From a virus (Duplodnaviria > Heunggongvirae > Uroviricota > Caudoviricetes), in IMG/VR virus record IMGVR_UViG_2737471843_000003, positions 1 to 14,020 of that record: 14,020 bases of DNA; one strand, given 5' to 3'. Both the position numbers and the translations under genes were made by a program. Below the pieces are notes generated by a model. The model was not told the origin of the DNA. It was given only the letters and a program-made list of their open reading frames with translations, and made no database searches. Each line of letters begins with the position of its first letter. Positions within the stretch are counted from its first letter, which is position 1. Below are positions 1 to 8,106 of the stretch, piece after piece.

Positions 1-342
1 ATGATGAAAAAAAGTATTCTGACGTTTCTGTTACTCACCAGTTCTGCAGCGGCGCTGGCTGCACCGCAGGTGATTACCGTCAGTCGTTTTGAAGTGGGTA
101 AAGACAAATGGGCGTTTAATCGCGAAGAGGTGATGCTGACTTGCAGACCGGGTAATGCTTTGTATGTCATTAACCCAAGTACCCTCGTGCAGTATCCTTT
201 AAACGATATCGCACAAAAGGAAGTTGCCAGTGGGAAGACTAAAGCCCAACCCATTTCGGTGATTCAGATTGATGATCCTAACAATCCCGGCGAAAAAATG
301 AGTCTGGCACCGTTTATAGAACGAGCTGAAAAACTCTGTTAA
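1..342 (+). CDS. yebY: Small secreted protein with N-terminal signal peptide, DUF2511/YebY-like
   Basis: ORF track 113 aa. The N-terminus [23 protein letters not shown] looks like a Sec signal peptide with an AxA cleavage site. I recognise the sequence as E. coli YebY from memory, not from a search. A hairpin plus T-run follows the stop. Confidence 0.6.
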
Positions 343-371
343 TTACCTAAAATAGCCTTTTGATTTCCAAT

Positions 372-413
372 AAAAAAACCGCCTCAGTTCTTTCACCAGA
401 ACGGGCGGTTTTT
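372..413. terminator. Rho-independent terminator downstream of yebY, A-run / GC stem / T-run, potentially bidirectional
   Basis: AAAAAAACCGCC at 372-383 pairs with GGCGG at 404-408, with an inner GTTC/GAAC pairing, followed by TTTTT at 409-413. The A-run on the other side would make it usable from the minus strand as well. Confidence 0.6.
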
Positions 414-469
414 AACATTTCAGCTGATGACCACCACGCTTTTTATTGACCATTTTGCACGCAAACTGG

Positions 470-500
470 AAAACCTGGCGTCGTCATCTATTCTTAAAGG
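470..500 (+). promoter_or_regulatory. Sigma-S-type promoter for sdsR
   Basis: A -10 element TATTCT at 489-494 preceded by C at 488 (the -13 C typical of sigma-S promoters), placed 6 nt upstream of the proposed SdsR 5' end at 501. No convincing -35 element. Confidence 0.45.
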
Positions 501-569
501 GCAAGGCAACTAAGCCTGCATTAATGCCAACTTTTAGCGCACGGCTCTCTCCCAAGAGCCATTTCCCTG

Positions 570-603
570 GACCGAATACAGGAATCGTATTCGGTCTTTT
601 TTT
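570..603 (+). terminator. Intrinsic terminator of SdsR
   Basis: GACCGAATAC (570-579), loop AGGAATC, GTATTCGGTC (587-596), then TTTTTTT (597-603). Read directly from the sequence. Confidence 0.75.
581..603. other. Putative attL core, the last ~23 bp of sdsR
   Basis: A tyrosine integrase gene ends 130 bp downstream. The terminal 23 bp of ryeB/sdsR has been reported as a recurrent phage attachment site in Salmonella and E. coli. The exact crossover cannot be determined from one junction. Confidence 0.4.
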
Positions 604-640
604 AATTGTATTTAAAATCAATTAGTTGCAAACGTCTCCC

Positions 641-670
641 CGAAATTACTCGAAATTTACTCGAATTTCT
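641..670 (+). repeat. Three tandem 10-11 bp direct repeats, candidate arm-type integrase binding sites
   Basis: CGAAATTACT (641-650), CGAAATTTACT (651-661), CGAATTTCT (662-670), read directly. They sit between the putative core and the int 3' end, like the P'1-P'3 arm sites of lambda attP. Confidence 0.4.
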
Positions 671-734
671 GTATTCCGGTCTTTTTTGGTTATATCACAA
701 CCAAAACACATTTAACAATCCATTTACGTTAAAA

Positions 735-1811
735 TCAGAGCAGTAAGTACGTTTTTTCTCTCTCATCAAGATACATTTTTGTTGTCTTCTCCGATGTGTG
801 GCCAAGTAGACGTTGAGCAAATTCTTCCCCACATGTTTCTTTGTACAATCGTCCAGCCAGGCTTCTGATCTCGTGAAAAGTTGGTGGGTTTTCACTGAAC
901 TGGATACCTGTTAATTTTCTGGCTGCGACAAATTTTTTTGTCAGGCCGTCCGGGTGAATGCTGCCGTCAGGGCTGTTTTTTCTAATCCCGGCACTGATTA
1001 GAAAATCTCCCCGGCTTACCAGGCGGCACCGTTCAACTACTGTACCAAGACGTAAACCAGCGACCGGAAGGCTGAGTGACAGGGGGATAGCAATCATCAT
1101 TCCTGTCTTAATTTGCCTGATGTGAAGACGATCATCATAAATATCACTGAACCGCATATTCGTTATGTCTTCGCGACGTTGTCCTGTTACAAGGGCTAAG
1201 TCCATAGCTAATGGGAACCATGCCGGAAGTTGATCTGCTGCCTCCCTGATGCAGTTGTATGTCTTTAGTTTCAGCCGTTCTCTTGTAACTACTATTTTCG
1301 GTGCTCTTGTTGGCGTTACTGGATTTTGAGATATACGCCCTTCAACAATGGCTTCGCGGAACATATCAGATAACACAGAACGCATTGATCCTGCCATCGT
1401 GTTTTTCCCTCCTTCAATCCACAAATCAAGAAACTCGGCAATATGGCGAGTGGTTATTTCTGTCAGTAAGATCCCTCCTAATTTTTCTTTTATTGTTTCC
1501 AGTTGATTTCCCCGAATTTTATAAGTATTTCTGGACACTTTTCTCCTTATAAGAATCGTTTTGTAACGTTCAATCCAGTCTGCCATAGTAAATGAGTCGA
1601 ACCCTTTAAGTTTTTCAATTAAGGCAGCAGGAGAGTAGTTTTTGTATATATAATGATTTGCTTCAATTGCCTGCGCGATTGCATCTCTTCTTGAAATTTT
1701 ACCTAGTGTAAATTCTTCTTTCGTAAGAGGGTTGCGCCAGTAATATGCTTTGTCCCTCCTTCGATATGTTAAGTTCCTAGGCAAATTGGGATCGTATTTT
1801 TTCCGCTGCAT
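735..1811 (-). CDS. int: Tyrosine recombinase, lambda Int-family integrase
   Basis: ORF track 358 aa. The N-terminus resembles the lambda Int arm-binding domain. The C-terminus carries the catalytic signature [11 protein letters not shown]...[15 protein letters not shown] (R, HxxR, Y). Its start overlaps the xis 3' end. Confidence 0.9.
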
Positions 1812-2058
1812 GTTTTAACTTCTCCAGTAACGGACTGTCTCTCCCTTGTCGCCCATTAGGCTGATGGTGTGTTATATCGGTATCAACCTTATTTGGGTTG
1901 ATATAGAAAGCCTCCGGAACCACCCTGTAACTCCTCCCGTGTAGTTCAGGTGCAGGATAAATGTTTCCATTCCTTGCCCATCGTCTCAGCGTTGATATTG
2001 ATGGTGGGTTATCCGGATATCTGAGTTTTCCCCACGTTTTGAGTGTCACAAGATTCAT
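1777..2058 (-). CDS. xis: Excisionase (Xis-like)
   Basis: The pattern VTLKTWGKL...STLRRWARNGNIYPAPELHGRSY resembles the lambda Xis winged helix. It overlaps int by 35 bp. I prefer the start at 2058 (AGAGG 7 nt upstream) over the track start at 2064. Confidence 0.7.
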   Translation of the reverse strand: MNLVTLKTWGKLRYPDNPPSISTLRRWARNGNIYPAPELHGRSYRVVPEAFYINPNKVDTDITHHQPNGRQGRDSPLLEKLKHAAEKIRSQFA

Positions 2059-2080
2059 TGCCATACCTCTTACGATATGA

Positions 2081-2109
2081 CCGCCAGTAAATATACAGAA
2101 TACTGGCGG
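2081..2109. promoter_or_regulatory. Perfect 9-bp inverted repeat upstream of xis
   Basis: CCGCCAGTA (2081-2089), 11-nt spacer, TACTGGCGG (2101-2109). It lies about 20 bp upstream of the xis ribosome-binding site with no adjacent T-run, so a protein-binding site or RNA hairpin is more likely than a terminator. Confidence 0.3.
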
Positions 2110-2164
2110 ACGTGATTGATTTTTAATAATCAGCTATGAAGTTATAATTTGGATATAATGCAAC

Positions 2165-2353
2165 TCACGAGGGCCGAAGTTTCTCGCAATTAAAATTTAT
2201 CAGCTTTACTTTCTGCTCTCTGGAAACGCCTGCTTCTTTTTTCCCCGAGAGCATTTTTTCGCATTCTGATTTAGTTAGTTTAGATTTTGAATATCTTGTC
2301 CAGTTAGTAGGAGTGCCACCTTCCTTTTCAATAGTGGCGGTAATTTTATACAT
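2165..2353 (-). CDS. Small hypothetical phage protein, 62 aa, at the Rac ydaC position
   Basis: In frame with track ORF 2165..2425. An internal ATG at 2353 is preceded by GGAGG with 5-nt spacing, and overlaps the lar stop by 8 bp. The family is not confidently recognised. Confidence 0.5.
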   Translation of the reverse strand: MYKITATIEKEGGTPTNWTRYSKSKLTKSECEKMLSGKKEAGVSREQKVKLINFNCEKLRPS

Positions 2354-2540
2354 GAACACCTCCATTATTATTTCCAGTGGTTCGTTTATTCCATCGTTCG
2401 AGTGCTTCTTTTTCACTTCCACCATAGCCGGTTCGGGATTCGCATCCGTTACACTTCGCGCGGTAATATCCTGAAATGGCTTTCACCGTTACTGATGGAC
2501 AACCACAAAAAGGGCATGGTTTGACTTTTTCATACCGCAT
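2346..2540 (-). CDS. ralR: Lar-family restriction alleviation protein (RalR-like)
   Basis: Track ORF 2346..2555. The CPFCG...CNGCE zinc-ribbon-like motif and ALERWNKR are typical of the Lar family. A start at 2540 gives 64 aa, the Rac RalR length as I recall it. Confidence 0.7.
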   Translation of the reverse strand: MRYEKVKPCPFCGCPSVTVKAISGYYRAKCNGCESRTGYGGSEKEALERWNKRTTGNNNGGVHV

Positions 2541-2603
2541 TGTCTTTTCTCTCATATAATAAAGTTTTGTGATGGCGGTGAGGCTACACCGCCAAAGTCA
2601 ATA

Positions 2604-3707
2604 TCAGGAGCCGATATATTCTGGTTTCATATCTGTCAGTGTCGTTTTATACGCCTCATATAATTCACCCAGATGTGGTCGTGCAGCATTCAGCGTATTT
2701 TCCAGAGCAGTAAATTTTTGTTCTGCTTCTGGATCACCTGATGAAGGCAGGTCATTTATCATCTTCTCGATACTGGCAATAGCATTGAGACGGTGATGAC
2801 GCCGAACCACTTTTCCTTTAAGCTCGGCAAAGAATTCGCCGATCTGGTTTTTCTGATCCTCTATCTCTTGGCGTAATGCAGTGGTTTCCTCAGTCGTGGC
2901 CGCGCTTTCTATACGCTGCCGGAATTCATCAATCCACGCTTCGTCAATACGCTGTTCGATGGTTTCTGTTCGCTGCTCGCTTACCTCGCTATAATTCTGT
3001 ACCGACACAGGATTGATGATTTTTTCCTGTGGCTCTTCCAGTTCGTCCGGGGTATACACGCCCAGGATGACGTCAGGACAATAAAGGCGAGCCCAGTATT
3101 TCAACGCCAGATAGGCGAGCTGTTGTTTCGGGTTTGAGGTCCATAAAGGAGAATTACGCGTAATCACGCTGGAAAGAAACACCGGTTCTCCCCAGGTAAT
3201 CTCACTTTCACCGCGAAGAACTGCACCAACTCGAACTGAGAGACCATACTCATCTTCACTGGTCCAACATGGGATCGTTTCTTTTTTCTCATAGATTCCG
3301 CCTCCTTTGGCCGTTTTCTTAACGATCTCCACTCGGGTGCGAGAGCATTTCTCCCAGTCTCCCTCGTACTTGTAATGGAAGCGACCTACAATTGCACTTG
3401 AGCTAGAGATCACAGCGTTAACCAGTTGTGCTTCATAACCCAGAACTCCGTTTACCAGGTGTGTTTTCTGAGCCACAGCGTAGGGGTTCATGCCCCATTG
3501 CATAGCTTGCATGATGATTGCCATGCAGTCGGCAGGATTTCCGCGAAGGTGATCGGGAACTGTGACGGTGGCCTGTGCCATCAACCCGGCTACTGCCTGA
3601 AGTTGCGTCAACGCCTGAACGTTAAAAATAGTGTTACTGGCAGAAATGGTATTTGGTGTCTGCTCTGTCGTGATGATATTGGTATTTTGCATGGTCAGGT
3701 TCTCCAT
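2604..3707 (-). CDS. Single-strand annealing protein, RecT/Redbeta superfamily, partner of RecE
   Basis: ORF track 367 aa. The core ADCMAIIMQAMQWGMNPY...VNGVLGYEAQLVNAV fits the RecT/Redbeta pattern. It sits immediately downstream of recE with a 1-nt stop/start overlap. It is clearly not the canonical 269-aa K-12 RecT sequence. An alternative start at 3692 has GGAG upstream. Confidence 0.7.
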   Translation of the reverse strand: MENLTMQNTNIITTEQTPNTISASNTIFNVQALTQLQAVAGLMAQATVTVPDHLRGNPADCMAIIMQAMQWGMNPYAVAQKTHLVNGVLGYEAQLVNAVISSSSAIVGRFHYKYEGDWEKCSRTRVEIVKKTAKGGGIYEKKETIPCWTSEDEYGLSVRVGAVLRGESEITWGEPVFLSSVITRNSPLWTSNPKQQLAYLALKYWARLYCPDVILGVYTPDELEEPQEKIINPVSVQNYSEVSEQRTETIEQRIDEAWIDEFRQRIESAATTEETTALRQEIEDQKNQIGEFFAELKGKVVRRHHRLNAIASIEKMINDLPSSGDPEAEQKFTALENTLNAARPHLGELYEAYKTTLTDMKPEYIGS

Positions 3708-6700
3708 TAAGCCAGATGCAGTGCTTCAAGACGACGAAGATCAAAGTCGTTTAATTCGTCGGTATAACTTTCGGTAATCGGTGCTGGCCAGTTGTTTGTC
3801 TCCAGGGCTTCGTTTATCTGGCGTAGCGTCCGGCGATATTCCTGTCGACCAAGTTCAAGGAGTTCCTGCGAGGCTTCCACGACTGCCACCCAGTGATAGC
3901 CAGCATCTTTGTTGACGAAGATCCAGAAAAATTTGTCCAGGTTTGCCACATCGCAATACATTGCGGCGCTGAGGTGATAATCACGCTCAATAATTTCACG
4001 GTGCAGGCGATCTTTAAGTCGTTCCTGCCGCACATAACCGAGGCTGACTGACTTCACGTCAGCGCAAATGCTTTCGTATGGCAGCCGGATTTCGATATCA
4101 GGACGGACCCTGATTTCCAGCCCGGTTTCTTCATCAAACCCGAAATAGCTGATTTCAGATTTGCGATCCGGGTGGTTGAGTAGCCTTGCTGCATCGGTAT
4201 TGTTTTGCAGTGCCGCGTGAATATTTTTTGCCTGTTCATACATATCCGGACTGATAAACGTTTTCCCGGCGTTTTCTTCTTGCTGGCGTTTTTGCCAGTC
4301 CTCCAGTGTCACCAGTTCCGGGCGAATTTTCCGTGCGATTTCGGTTAATTGCTCTTTTGTGCCACTGATGTTGTAAGGCAAAGATTTAGCACGTTCTTTT
4401 TTTGCCAGTTCTGGATCTACAGTTTCAATTTGATCCAGAAGCTGCTCCCGTGCTCCACTGGTTTTCAACAGAGGAGGGAGGCTTGCGTTGTATTCTTTAA
4501 TACAGGCTTTCATTGCTGATGCTGTGTGTTTTTCCCCCTCAGGAATACGCCGAAATTCCACCGGAAGCGAACCGTAAAGGATGCCTGTTTCTTCGGCCCC
4601 AGCACTTACAGACAGTGGCTGTATAAGAGTGCTGTTGTAGCTTTCGATCCACTCTTTCATCTGCTCTGGTGTCATCAGTGCTGGCAGACTGGCATTGTGT
4701 TTTTTAATGATGGCGATCAGTTCGTTAGAAGTAGTAACCACATATTCAGGAACCGGTACCGGAATGGCATATTCATCTGCGAATTTATCCGTTTCCAGAA
4801 CATAGCTGTGAATGATCCGCCCACGCAGCAGTGCGTCACTTTCCTCGTTCGGAATAGTTCCGGCAATGTGCCGCCCGTGGTAATACATCAGGCTGATACG
4901 GGCATCCTTCAGCATCGTGCTGCTTATTCCGTTGGCGGAGTGATAAACCTCGTTCGGGAGGTTTTCATAGCGGCCTGGCTCGAAATATGACGGCCACATG
5001 ATTTCAGTTGCTACAGGAGCTGACGCTTCGCCAGTTTCATCACTGCAATTGCGATGCGGATCGCTGTCAGCATTCTCATTGTGCTGATGTTCAGCGCCTT
5101 CCATTTCCTCCGGATCTTTTTCCAGAGATTCATCCAGATTTTCTTCATTAAATGTTTCCTGATACGTTGCGTCGCCCATCGCCGCGCCACAATCAGGGCA
5201 GTTGCCCCCACCGATCTGACCGCAGGCGGTGCAGACTTTTTCCGGTTCTTGTTGCTCTTCTGGTTCAGGCTGTTTCGTTTCTGGCTCGTTTTGTTGCGTA
5301 TTTGGGCTGTTTTGTTCCGCTTTCTTGTCGTTCTGTTCCGTTTCTTGCTGGTTCTGGTTCACAGAGTCGAGGGTTTCAATCCCCTTAACCCATTTCGGAT
5401 CGTTCGGGTCGCTAATCCCTTCAACAAATTCTCCGCGAGAGGCAGCCAGTAATTTGTCTGCATCGACAGGATTTTTGGGCGGAATGTTTTTCCGGGCTTC
5501 ATGGAGTTCTGCCCGCAGTTTCTGATATTTCGCATCAACAGAATTTACCTGTGACTGAGCATCCAGCGGCTGCGTGTTCTGATGATGTTCAGTTGCATTC
5601 GGTTCCACTGTTTCAGCCGTTGCCTGTTCATCTGCCATTGCGCCAGATGGTTGTGGTTTTTCTTCATCGTCCTGTTTTCCTTCTTCTGTTACTCGCTGCG
5701 GCATCGGGGCAGAGGAGCGACCGCAGGCAATATCCACGATTTCCGGATCAGGGTTGGCATGATCGGTTTCAGTCAGTACTTTGTTCAGATATTCAGTGAC
5801 GTGTGCGGGGATGACCTCGATCCCAATTGGTGCTTCTTTCACGGACGCAACCACGATGGCGCGGGAATAATCCAGCCCGCCAGGCATGGTGATGAATTTG
5901 TCGCGGAAAACAGAAAAGGGTGGTTTATTTTCAGCGATAATTTCCTCAATGCGTTTAGCGTGTGCCGGATGAAGGTTATAAATGTCCACGTCCATTGAAC
6001 GGGCCAGTACGCCAGTGGCTACATCGCGTGCCAGTGACGTCAGATCGTGGACGAAACCTTCGCCGCGATCGGTGAGGTTCCCGCCGCCAGCATTAGCACC
6101 GGAAGCCGTGCGAGTGATGCGTGAAACACGATTTCCTTTCATCCACTCTTTTGTCAGCAGACCGCGATCGGTGTAGTCTGCGTCCAGGTATGCTTCGAAA
6201 AAAGCAGTCATCAGCCCCAGACTTGAATTGCCTGGATTAGGGAAAACTTTGTCAGTATCACGAACCAGTCTGTGAAGATCGCGAATCTCCAGCGGGTCGA
6301 GCAGGCTGGTTTTGTGGGAAACAGCTAGGGCAGTAACAGCTGGTAGTTCTTCGGCCCGTGCAATATGTAATGTCTGGAGTTCGTCGCGTGAAACGTGCGT
6401 TACCGGTTTTTCGCTGCCGTGTTGAGCAAGCCAGCGAATGGGCAGCTCTTGGCCAGAAATCGGGAGTAGCATATTCTCCTCAATCTCAGTCATGTCTTCG
6501 CCATTAACATTGGTATTGTCAGTGCTGTCTGGTTTGTACTGCGCAGAGGATGAGGGCGCGATAAATACCATTGTGATGCCATCTTCCCCGCCTTTTTCGT
6601 AACGGTTGCAGAATTCCGTATCAAATACGCCTTCTGGTGGAAGGTCATCAACAACGGGCAAATTGACGCGAACAGGTTTTTTAAAGTCATCTTCATCGTA

Positions 6701-6856
6701 GCCAGCATCGTCAATCGCAACAGCACCACGGGAGATGGCAATGGATAATTTTTTCGCTTCAGCCCAGTAGAAACCGCCTTTAATACCGAGACGTTTTCTT
6801 ACTTTGTCATTTTTTGCTTCGTAATACAGTGGGTAAACTTGTTTATCGGTGCTCAT
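3707..6856 (-). CDS. recE: Exonuclease VIII (RecE-family 5'-3' dsDNA exonuclease)
   Basis: ORF track 1049 aa. The C-terminal domain carries PD-(D/E)xK-type residues (RPDIEIR...CADVKS) and long stretches I recognise as RecE-like. It is about 180 aa longer than the 866-aa K-12 RecE as I remember it. Confidence 0.85.
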
Positions 6857-7697: not shown

Positions 7698-8106
7698 AAT
7701 TATCTCCATTTTTACAAATGAATTTTGTCGATGCGGTGCCTGGTGCCTCCAGGTGACGTTAACCAGTTAACAATTAACGCCGGATATTTCACCCATAACT
7801 CTGCTACGAAGGACAATAGCTTTTTAACTGTTCCGCGTGCGCTTAGCCGCATTCACCGCATCACAAAATTCACTTTAAAAAGGGGCGGCAGGGCAGCCAC
7901 GGAGTAGAACTGATGCCGCCAAAGACTACACACAGCAATGTCGTTATTTACAACCGGAGGCGCACTCCCACCATTTAAATTTAACAGACAAAACCGACTC
8001 TTTATGAATACCGGAAATGCGCCTTCGTGTTGTGCGCCTGTCTTTTTACCACTTCAGGCTCGGTGGTATACTGGAGTTCTCACACAACCAGTAATAAGGT
8101 ATTCCT

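Follow-up and report, generated by a model that had tools for sequence, protein, structure and literature searches.

Which exonuclease does the long RecT protein of this prophage belong to, and what could its extended C-terminal part do? A sequence-only reading of the locus had described RecE as paired with a non-canonical annealing protein carrying a long acidic C-terminal tail, and had taken the arrangement for a module swap in which the exonuclease was conserved and the annealing partner replaced. We followed up these proposals in the window, that is, the whole stretch of viral DNA that was analysed (14,020 nucleotides; IMG/VR record IMGVR_UViG_2737471843_000003), and the features discussed below are collected in Table 1.

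The protein was readily assigned to a family. Pfam RecT (PF03837) covers its aa 41-228 (E 4.3e-37; 128 bits, the cutoff being 24; positions 2-190 of the 198-position profile), and PHROG 561, "RecT-like ssDNA annealing protein", matches it along its whole length (aa 3-366; E 4.7e-153), all of its PHROG matches being RecT-like. An assignment to ERF or Sak was rejected, since Pfam returned RecT alone and no ERF or Sak model matched. In addition, the β-β-α-β-β-β-α core fold common to Redβ and LiRecT is present in the predicted structure. The RecT of the K-12 Rac prophage (269 aa, NC_000913) matches the same Pfam family, but BLASTP between the two proteins found nothing (best E 0.15 over 19 residues), and the earlier observation of a RecT/Redβ-like core in a protein unlike the canonical Rac RecT therefore stands. 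K-12 RecT is basic (pI 8.4) and has a C-terminus of about 25 residues without a helical C-terminal domain, whereas 139 residues of the window protein remain past the Pfam core (positions 2607-3023). No RecT model was returned by an NCBIfam scan, which gave only a sub-threshold and spurious BlhA match on the helical tail, and PDB sequence searches with the protein and with its family profile found nothing relevant. Together, the family and homologue matches identify the gene product as a Gifsy-type protein of the RecT/Redβ family, with a predicted function in single-strand annealing.

The gene itself is already known, as an annotated and widespread prophage recombinase. Full-length copies occur in 32 of 5426 complete E. 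coli genomes, always annotated as "RecT family recombinase" and adjoining recE, and the gene is 100% nucleotide-identical in four complete E. coli genomes. Its protein family, RecT proteins of ~370 aa, is very large, with more than 6500 homologues in a large protein database; among the 120 matches listed, two near-identical E. coli proteins were followed mostly by proteins of 350-386 aa with 58-69% identity over 95-99% coverage, with names including RecT family recombinase, enterohemolysin and Gifsy-2 prophage RecT. Full-length identity to the matches named RecT family recombinase or Gifsy-2 prophage RecT is 60-69%. Full-length relatives also occur in phages mEp237, SPN3UB and FSL SP-016 and in Klebsiella phages, and the partner nucleases of mEp237, SPN3UB and VBM1 are annotated as Gifsy-1 RecE-like. 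The closest system was Rac-SA53 (KU052037, ALP46873; a literature search on this name found nothing relevant), whose RecT is 98.9% identical over all 367 residues, which makes the protein a common variant of RecT that is identical along its full length to a known Rac-family member at this level. Rac-SA53 also encodes a RecE of 1048 aa with a nuclease domain 100% identical to that of the window, and ralR lies downstream in both; however, the N-terminal ~110 aa of the two RecE proteins differ, and Rac-SA53 is inserted at ttcA with an IntR integrase, whereas the window prophage carries λ-type int/xis and adjoins yebY instead of ttcA. Because the protein is a common and already annotated Gifsy-type RecT, the finding as it had been put is ordinary. 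What the comparison adds, of moderate interest to specialists, is support for the "tail" as a conserved, nuclease-coupled domain.

The relation of recT to recE was the same in every related phage and prophage inspected, the two genes being co-oriented and abutting, here at position 3707. At the junction (...GCT TAA TGG AGA ACC TGA CC ATG...), the last A of the recE stop TAA is the first A of the first recT ATG. The 1-nt stop/start overlap that had been claimed is thus real for the longest ORF, but it is doubtful for the recT gene, because PGAP and most homologues begin at Met6. The equivalent of Met6 is the start in more than 90% of the aligned RecT homologues, and the 100%-identical gene in RefSeq/PGAP starts there as well (362 aa, 14 nt past the recE stop). 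Furthermore, the Met6 ATG is preceded by GGAG 9 nt upstream. The overlap may consequently belong to the ORF and not to the gene.

Table 1. Features of the recE-recT locus, in window coordinates.
Feature	Coordinates	Strand	Basis
RecT-family annealing protein ORF	2604..3707	-	first ATG gives 367 aa; Pfam RecT, PHROG 561
Probable true recT start (Met6)	3692	-	362 aa; homologues and PGAP
RecT/Redβ annealing core, aa 41-228	3024..3587	-	Pfam
Variable linker, predicted disordered, aa 214-252	2952..3068	-	pLDDT <50; gappy and poorly conserved in alignment
Conserved helical RecT C-terminal domain, aa 256-367; candidate nuclease-docking module	2607..2942	-	AF2, invariant residues, co-inheritance
Inner patch (RecT aa 1 to about 290) divergent from the L008/P0102 type, the commoner allele in E. 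coli	2840..3720	-	sliding DNA identity
Cassette exchanged in comparison with K-12 Rac (all of recT and the nuclease domain)	2595..5011	-	blastn
recE, exodeoxyribonuclease VIII, 1049-aa chimera (Rac-type N-terminal part and Gifsy-type nuclease domain)	3707..6856	-	NCBIfam PRK09709, 1525 bits; Pfam Exonuc_VIII and DUF3799; segment identities
RecE C-terminal PD-(D/E)XK nuclease domain, aa 616-1049	3710..5011	-	identity to mEp237, Rac-SA53 and L008; no K-12 DNA match
RecE catalytic motif D920 ... D933-V-K935	4052..4099	-	BLASTP alignment with K-12 RecE D748 ... D759-V-K761
~160-aa insertion in the nuclease domain, aa ~701-860	4277..4756	-	alignment gaps; occurs with the long RecT C-terminal domain

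The extension of RecT proved to be more than a tail. An AlphaFold2 (AF2) model of the whole protein, built on a 33-sequence alignment, showed the α/β core, a disordered linker at aa 214-252 (pLDDT <50) and a helical domain at aa 256-364, and aa 253-367 modelled alone formed five main helices and a further one-turn helix (pLDDT 96, pTM 0.85). Fourteen positions of the domain are invariant in the alignment (R263, E295, L296, R303, P321, F332, E336, L339, H345, L349, D359, P362, E363 and Y364), whatever the type of the adjoining nuclease, and the domain terminates in the motif DMKPEY. The models thus clearly support a three-part protein, with a predicted annealing core (aa ~30-213) joined by a flexible linker (aa 214-252) to a helical domain at the C-terminus (aa 256-364). 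The sequence-only reading was right about the length of the extension (about 140 extra residues), its helicity, its Glu content (14.4%) and its acidity (pI 4.9, net charge -9), but not about Gln, which at 5.8% equals that of the whole protein, nor about a loose tail, as the linker is followed by a folded and conserved domain. In the same way, a disordered acidic tail like that of SSB was rejected on account of the pLDDT of 96 and the conserved hydrophobic positions. The fold of the domain, a spectrin-like bundle, is generic, and structural comparison with the Redβ C-terminal domain gave no match. When the domain alone was used in phmmer against 1.84 billion representatives, matches came from only 47 clusters and lay always at the protein C-terminus, and RecT-core segments were present in 10 of 10 cluster proteins scanned. 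Among the RecT C-terminal classes of ETfinder (NAR 2026, PMC13490951), the window protein fits the helical-bundle classes.

Comparison with Gifsy-1/Gifsy-2-type RecET systems (Salmonella; mEp237, SPN3UB) pointed to an uneven conservation of these parts. As in the window, these systems encode a large exonuclease followed by a RecT of the same full-length architecture (61-65% identity), and the C-terminal domain of their exonuclease is 52% identical, the 160-aa insertion included. The RecT core of the Gifsy-type phages is 73-85% identical to that of the window, whereas identity in the C-terminal domain falls to 38-50%. Functionally, the Gifsy recET genes act in recombination, and the orthologues, once activated, suppress recB defects (PMC3121763).

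For a systematic test, we took 80 loci from one-genome-per-species contigs, added the phage loci, kept the 53 in which RecT was full-length and the nuclease domain complete, and analysed their pairwise identities (1378 pairs) by Mantel test, partial correlation and bootstrap. The identity of the nuclease domain was strongly correlated with that of the C-terminal domain of RecT (r 0.81; p 5e-4 in the Mantel test), and much less with that of the RecT core (r 0.30), while the core and the C-terminal domain of the same protein reached only r 0.28. The partial correlation between nuclease and C-terminal domain given the core was 0.79, and the bootstrap difference between the coupling of the C-terminal domain and that of the core to the nuclease was 0.51 [0.36-0.65]. 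Host genus was rejected as a confounder, because restricting the analysis to pairs from different genera left the correlation unchanged (0.83). Along RecT, a sliding profile against the nuclease gave r 0.1-0.4 at aa ~30-210 and 0.67-0.80 from aa ~226 to the end, the switch at aa ~215-230 being sharp. The core lies between the two coupled domains, yet it does not share their coupling. In terms of domain types, an insert-bearing nuclease went with the long RecT C-terminal domain in 58 loci and a ~275-aa nuclease with a short tail in 12, with one clean exception (L082, a long-tail RecT beside a small 288-aa nuclease); the few other discordant loci were truncated or fragmentary ORFs, except VBM1, whose large RecE was unaligned over the insertion. 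Speaking against a strict match, nuclease pairs more than 90% identical had C-terminal domains only 60-90% identical. By these comparative measures, the linker and C-terminal domain of RecT have evidently been inherited together with the nuclease domain, and the core between them has been shuffled independently. No analysis of natural co-inheritance was found in the passages considered of the ETfinder paper (PMC13490951), whose examples come from mining for other hosts, beginning with 18,841 α-proteobacterial genomes in the case of Rhodobacter sphaeroides.

As the C-terminal domain is inherited together with the RecE nuclease domain, it probably docks on it, and we propose it as a partner-specific nuclease-docking module. 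A comparable contact has been seen structurally for λ, in which the C-terminal domain of Redβ is bound to λ Exo; binding of the window domain (~110 aa, five main spectrin-like helices), which is larger than that of Redβ, is suggested by co-inheritance instead. In this regard, a 2023 review notes the binding of λ Exo by the Redβ C-terminal domain and calls docking unknown for RecT (PMC11611040). We consider it likely, on balance of the evidence, that the Gifsy-type RecT and the adjacent RecE nuclease domain form a two-component recombinase with the C-terminal domain docking on the matching nuclease. RecE would resect the 5' strand at a double-strand end, the RecT C-terminal domain would dock on the matching nuclease domain, possibly via the 160-aa insertion, and the docked RecT cores would be loaded on the emerging 3' single strand and anneal the complementary strand; the invariant residues of the C-terminal domain may also bind host SSB. 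If true, this would extend the docking principle of Redβ and λ Exo to a RecT subfamily and help in designing RecET pairs for recombineering.

The main competing explanation is that the C-terminal domain binds host SSB or another factor, or mediates self-assembly of RecT, and that its co-inheritance with the nuclease reflects nothing but replacement of the highly conserved core by double crossovers in the absence of selection for matching. The core indeed has long near-invariant stretches that could serve as crossover sites, and cassette-like double crossovers within it could keep the flanks linked unselected. Binding of SSB would be in line with the 14 residues that are invariant whatever the nuclease type and with the generic fold of the domain; the C-terminal domain of Redβ also binds SSB (PMC11611040), and the portability of SSAPs depends on SSB (PMC13490951). 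However, a chain-linkage model predicts a coupling of about 0.08, far below the observed r of 0.81, or 0.84 with slightly different segment limits, and the pairing of long domain and insert-bearing nuclease in 58 loci against one clean exception also speaks against it. Moreover, the C-terminal-domain identity falls to about 40% within one host species, both between the window and mEp237 (E. coli) and between two Salmonella loci (L004 and L044), which binding of one host factor leaves unexplained; to our knowledge, the SSB C-terminal tail is essentially identical across Enterobacterales. We therefore regard the explanation without docking as unlikely.

The locus was also compared with K-12 Rac. 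Both genes belong to the Pfam families of their K-12 Rac counterparts (RecT; Exonuc_VIII and DUF3799) and occupy the same position between racC/kilR and ralR, the early-left operon of the prophage being Rac-like (kilR, ydaE, racC, recE, recT, ralR); PADLOC found no defence-system match for RecT, RecE, RalR or DUF1187. By blastn, the window was 92% identical to K-12 Rac at 2116-2594 (the ralR region) and 89% at 5012-6518, and positions 2595-5011, comprising recT and the 3' 1.3 kb of recE, had no match. At the protein level, aa 111-400 of RecE were 96% and aa 401-615 78% identical to K-12 RecE (BLASTP), whereas aa 616-1049 gave only a local alignment with about 28-29% identity. The nuclease domain is instead 52% identical to the mEp237 exonuclease over 428 aa, 44-52% to that of SPN3UB and 98-100% to those of Rac-SA53 and of the commoner E. 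coli allele (L008). The N-terminal part of RecE, on the other hand, is Rac (K-12)-like and differs from Gifsy RecE. The catalytic residues align with D748, D759 and K761 of K-12 RecE, which we take to be the active site seen in the RecE crystal structure. The ~160-aa insertion is missing, as alignment gaps, from K-12 RecE, whose nuclease domain has about 260 aa and is about 28% identical to that of the window, and from small RecE-like nucleases; a Pfam search with the insertion gave nothing significant. The junction at 5011/5012 corresponds to RecE aa 615 and aligns near K-12 residue ~590, just past the start of the K-12 nuclease domain (residues 564-866, with the PD-(D/E)XK domain at 602-866; PMC11611040). 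The locus thereby illustrates how a two-component recombinase is built, with the mosaic junction relative to K-12 lying where the nuclease domain of RecE begins.

Since the DNA unmatched in K-12 spans both the nuclease domain and RecT, with flanks of 89-92% identity, the two can be read as a cognate pair that was swapped jointly. Judging from these alignments, all of recT and the C-terminal 435 aa of RecE, its catalytic part, have clearly been exchanged together relative to K-12 Rac, and only the non-catalytic part of RecE (aa ~111-615) is conserved. The locus is thus best described as a predicted cognate pair of Gifsy type that has been joined to the N-terminal region of a Rac-type RecE, in agreement with the loci inspected, in which Gifsy-type exonucleases always adjoin a Gifsy-type RecT. 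As to the proposed module swap, the mosaic nature of the locus and the replacement of recT were confirmed, but the nuclease domain was swapped too.

A second, nested mosaic became apparent within E. coli. The commoner allele (L008-L010) is found in Rac prophages at ttcA and encodes a RecE of 1023 aa and a RecT of 350 aa (P0102). Compared with L008, the window is 98-100% identical in the nuclease domain, only 61-63% in the RecT core and 97% in the last 67 aa of RecT. Sliding DNA identity was 97-100% in the 3' part of recE, dropped at the recE/recT junction to 30-82% from ~3720 to ~2840, and returned to 87-100% thereafter, leaving the last ~75 RecT aa unchanged. The breakpoint falls within the C-terminal domain, at about aa 290, so that a match to the nuclease is perhaps required of no more than the last ~75 aa. 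Consistent with an exchange of the core, the nuclease-domain DNA was present in 190-192 and the C-terminal-domain DNA in 193 of the 5426 E. coli genomes, against 32 for the window-type core; the K-12-type recT was found in 1625. The converse case is mEp237, with 84% identity to the window in the core, 38-44% in the C-terminal domain and 52% in the nuclease domain. These patterns raise the possibility, for which we see about even chances, that a fixed frame, made of the nuclease domain on one side and the linker and C-terminal domain of RecT on the other, the two being required to match, holds an annealing core that can be exchanged freely as a cassette, the C-terminal ~75-110 aa acting as a portable nuclease-specific docking adaptor. 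If true, this would be natural genetic evidence on a point that the 2023 review called unknown for RecT (PMC11611040), and chimeras for recombineering could be built with any core, provided that the C-terminal domain remains the one that belongs to the nuclease.

The two mosaics also bear on the idea that a conserved Rac RecE acquired a foreign, non-cognate annealing protein, giving a new combination of exonuclease and annealase. This is what the RecE N-terminal region (aa ~111-615, 78-96% identical to K-12) would suggest, as would the NCBIfam name of exodeoxyribonuclease VIII for the whole protein, and against L008 the exonuclease is indeed conserved beside a divergent RecT core. The swap envisaged earlier therefore holds against the L008 allele, for RecT aa 1 to about 290 only, and fails against K-12 Rac, where the cassette takes in the nuclease domain together with recT and the catalytic part of RecE resembles the exonucleases found beside this type of RecT. 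Even relative to L008, the last ~75 aa of RecT are matched to the nuclease. A foreign annealase beside a conserved RecE is thus largely refuted by the alignments, and we hold it to be quite improbable.

Finally, the name "enterohemolysin", borne by several homologues, stems from an old cloning phenotype, and a cytolysin instead of a recombinase is next to inconceivable given the RecT Pfam domain, the Redβ-like fold, the constant location of the gene in the early-left operon, immediately after one for a RecE-type nuclease, and the lack of any signal peptide or membrane segment in the sequence read by eye; a hemolysin function, for which the database name is the sole basis, was rejected. As a separate observation, the nuclease and the RecT core are fused in one polypeptide in ε15/phiV10-like phages.

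The nuclease domain of the window RecE, of the PD-(D/E)XK type, is interrupted by an insertion of about 160 residues (see the table below), for which no Pfam match was found and within which a K(K/E)(H/Y)NASLP(A/P)L-like motif recurs, as judged by eye. This insertion is common to the nucleases that partner RecT proteins with a long helical C-terminal domain, and we found one clean exception to this rule, a Pantoea locus (L082, Pantoea sp. R13S299, 4135-6011), where a small nuclease of 288 aa lacking the insertion adjoins a long-tail RecT homologue that is 42% identical to the window RecT and covers its residues 8-365. The insertion might be the platform for docking.

A natural single-chain nuclease-RecT fusion is encoded by phage phiV10 (p37), in which a DUF3799 nuclease domain (aa 21-254) is followed by a RecT core (aa 310-490) belonging to the same subfamily as the window RecT, without the long C-terminal domain. 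This fusion explains why the window RecT matches positions 271-619 of PHROG 561, a RecT-like family. The phiV10 protein is also consistent with the idea that the selected feature is the tethering of nuclease and annealase.

Features of the window and of the phiV10 locus (L006)
Feature	Location	Strand	Remarks
yebY	1-342		in flank
SraC/RyeA and SdsR/RyeB sRNA pair	463-607		in flank
λ-type integrase	735-1811		Arm-DNA-binding domain
Excisionase	1777-2064
DUF1187 ORF	2165-2425
RalA sRNA	2169-2347	+	Rfam, 221 bits
ralR	2346-2555		Lar family
RecE insertion	4277-4756		RecE aa ~701-860
Mosaic patch, recE 5' end	6519-6848		RecE aa 1 to about 110
DicF antisense sRNA match	7883-7934	-	Rfam, 61.6 bits (gathering score 48)
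phiV10 p37	L006, 3119-4879		nuclease-RecT fusion

The 5' end of recE is an extra mosaic patch, which matched neither K-12 Rac nor the Escherichia phage Rac-SA53 at the DNA level; the amino-acid identity to these two is only 28-31% over this patch, compared with 68-96% over the following 500 residues. Additionally, the phage record L005 (PP818812, 'Actinobacillus phage vB_Apl-pPE4') encodes kilR-ydaE-recE-recT at 47-5074, with a RecE nuclease domain 96-100% identical to those of E. coli Rac alleles of the commoner type at ttcA (L008) and an essentially identical RecT. Actinobacillus seems a doubtful host for this phage; the record may stem from contaminating DNA, or the phage may be a Rac-like prophage induced from E. 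coli.

Directly downstream of the swapped cassette, the window keeps a type I toxin-antitoxin system known from K-12 Rac, in which RalA is the antitoxin to the RalR toxin; the RalA sRNA is antisense to the DUF1187 ORF and its end coincides with the beginning of ralR. The DicF match falls in the region of the early-left operon, on the upstream side of kilR. Lastly, the window prophage occupies a site different from that of Rac: in both K-12 Rac and Rac-SA53 the integrase is IntR and the site is ttcA, whereas the window prophage carries a λ-type integrase and is flanked by yebY.
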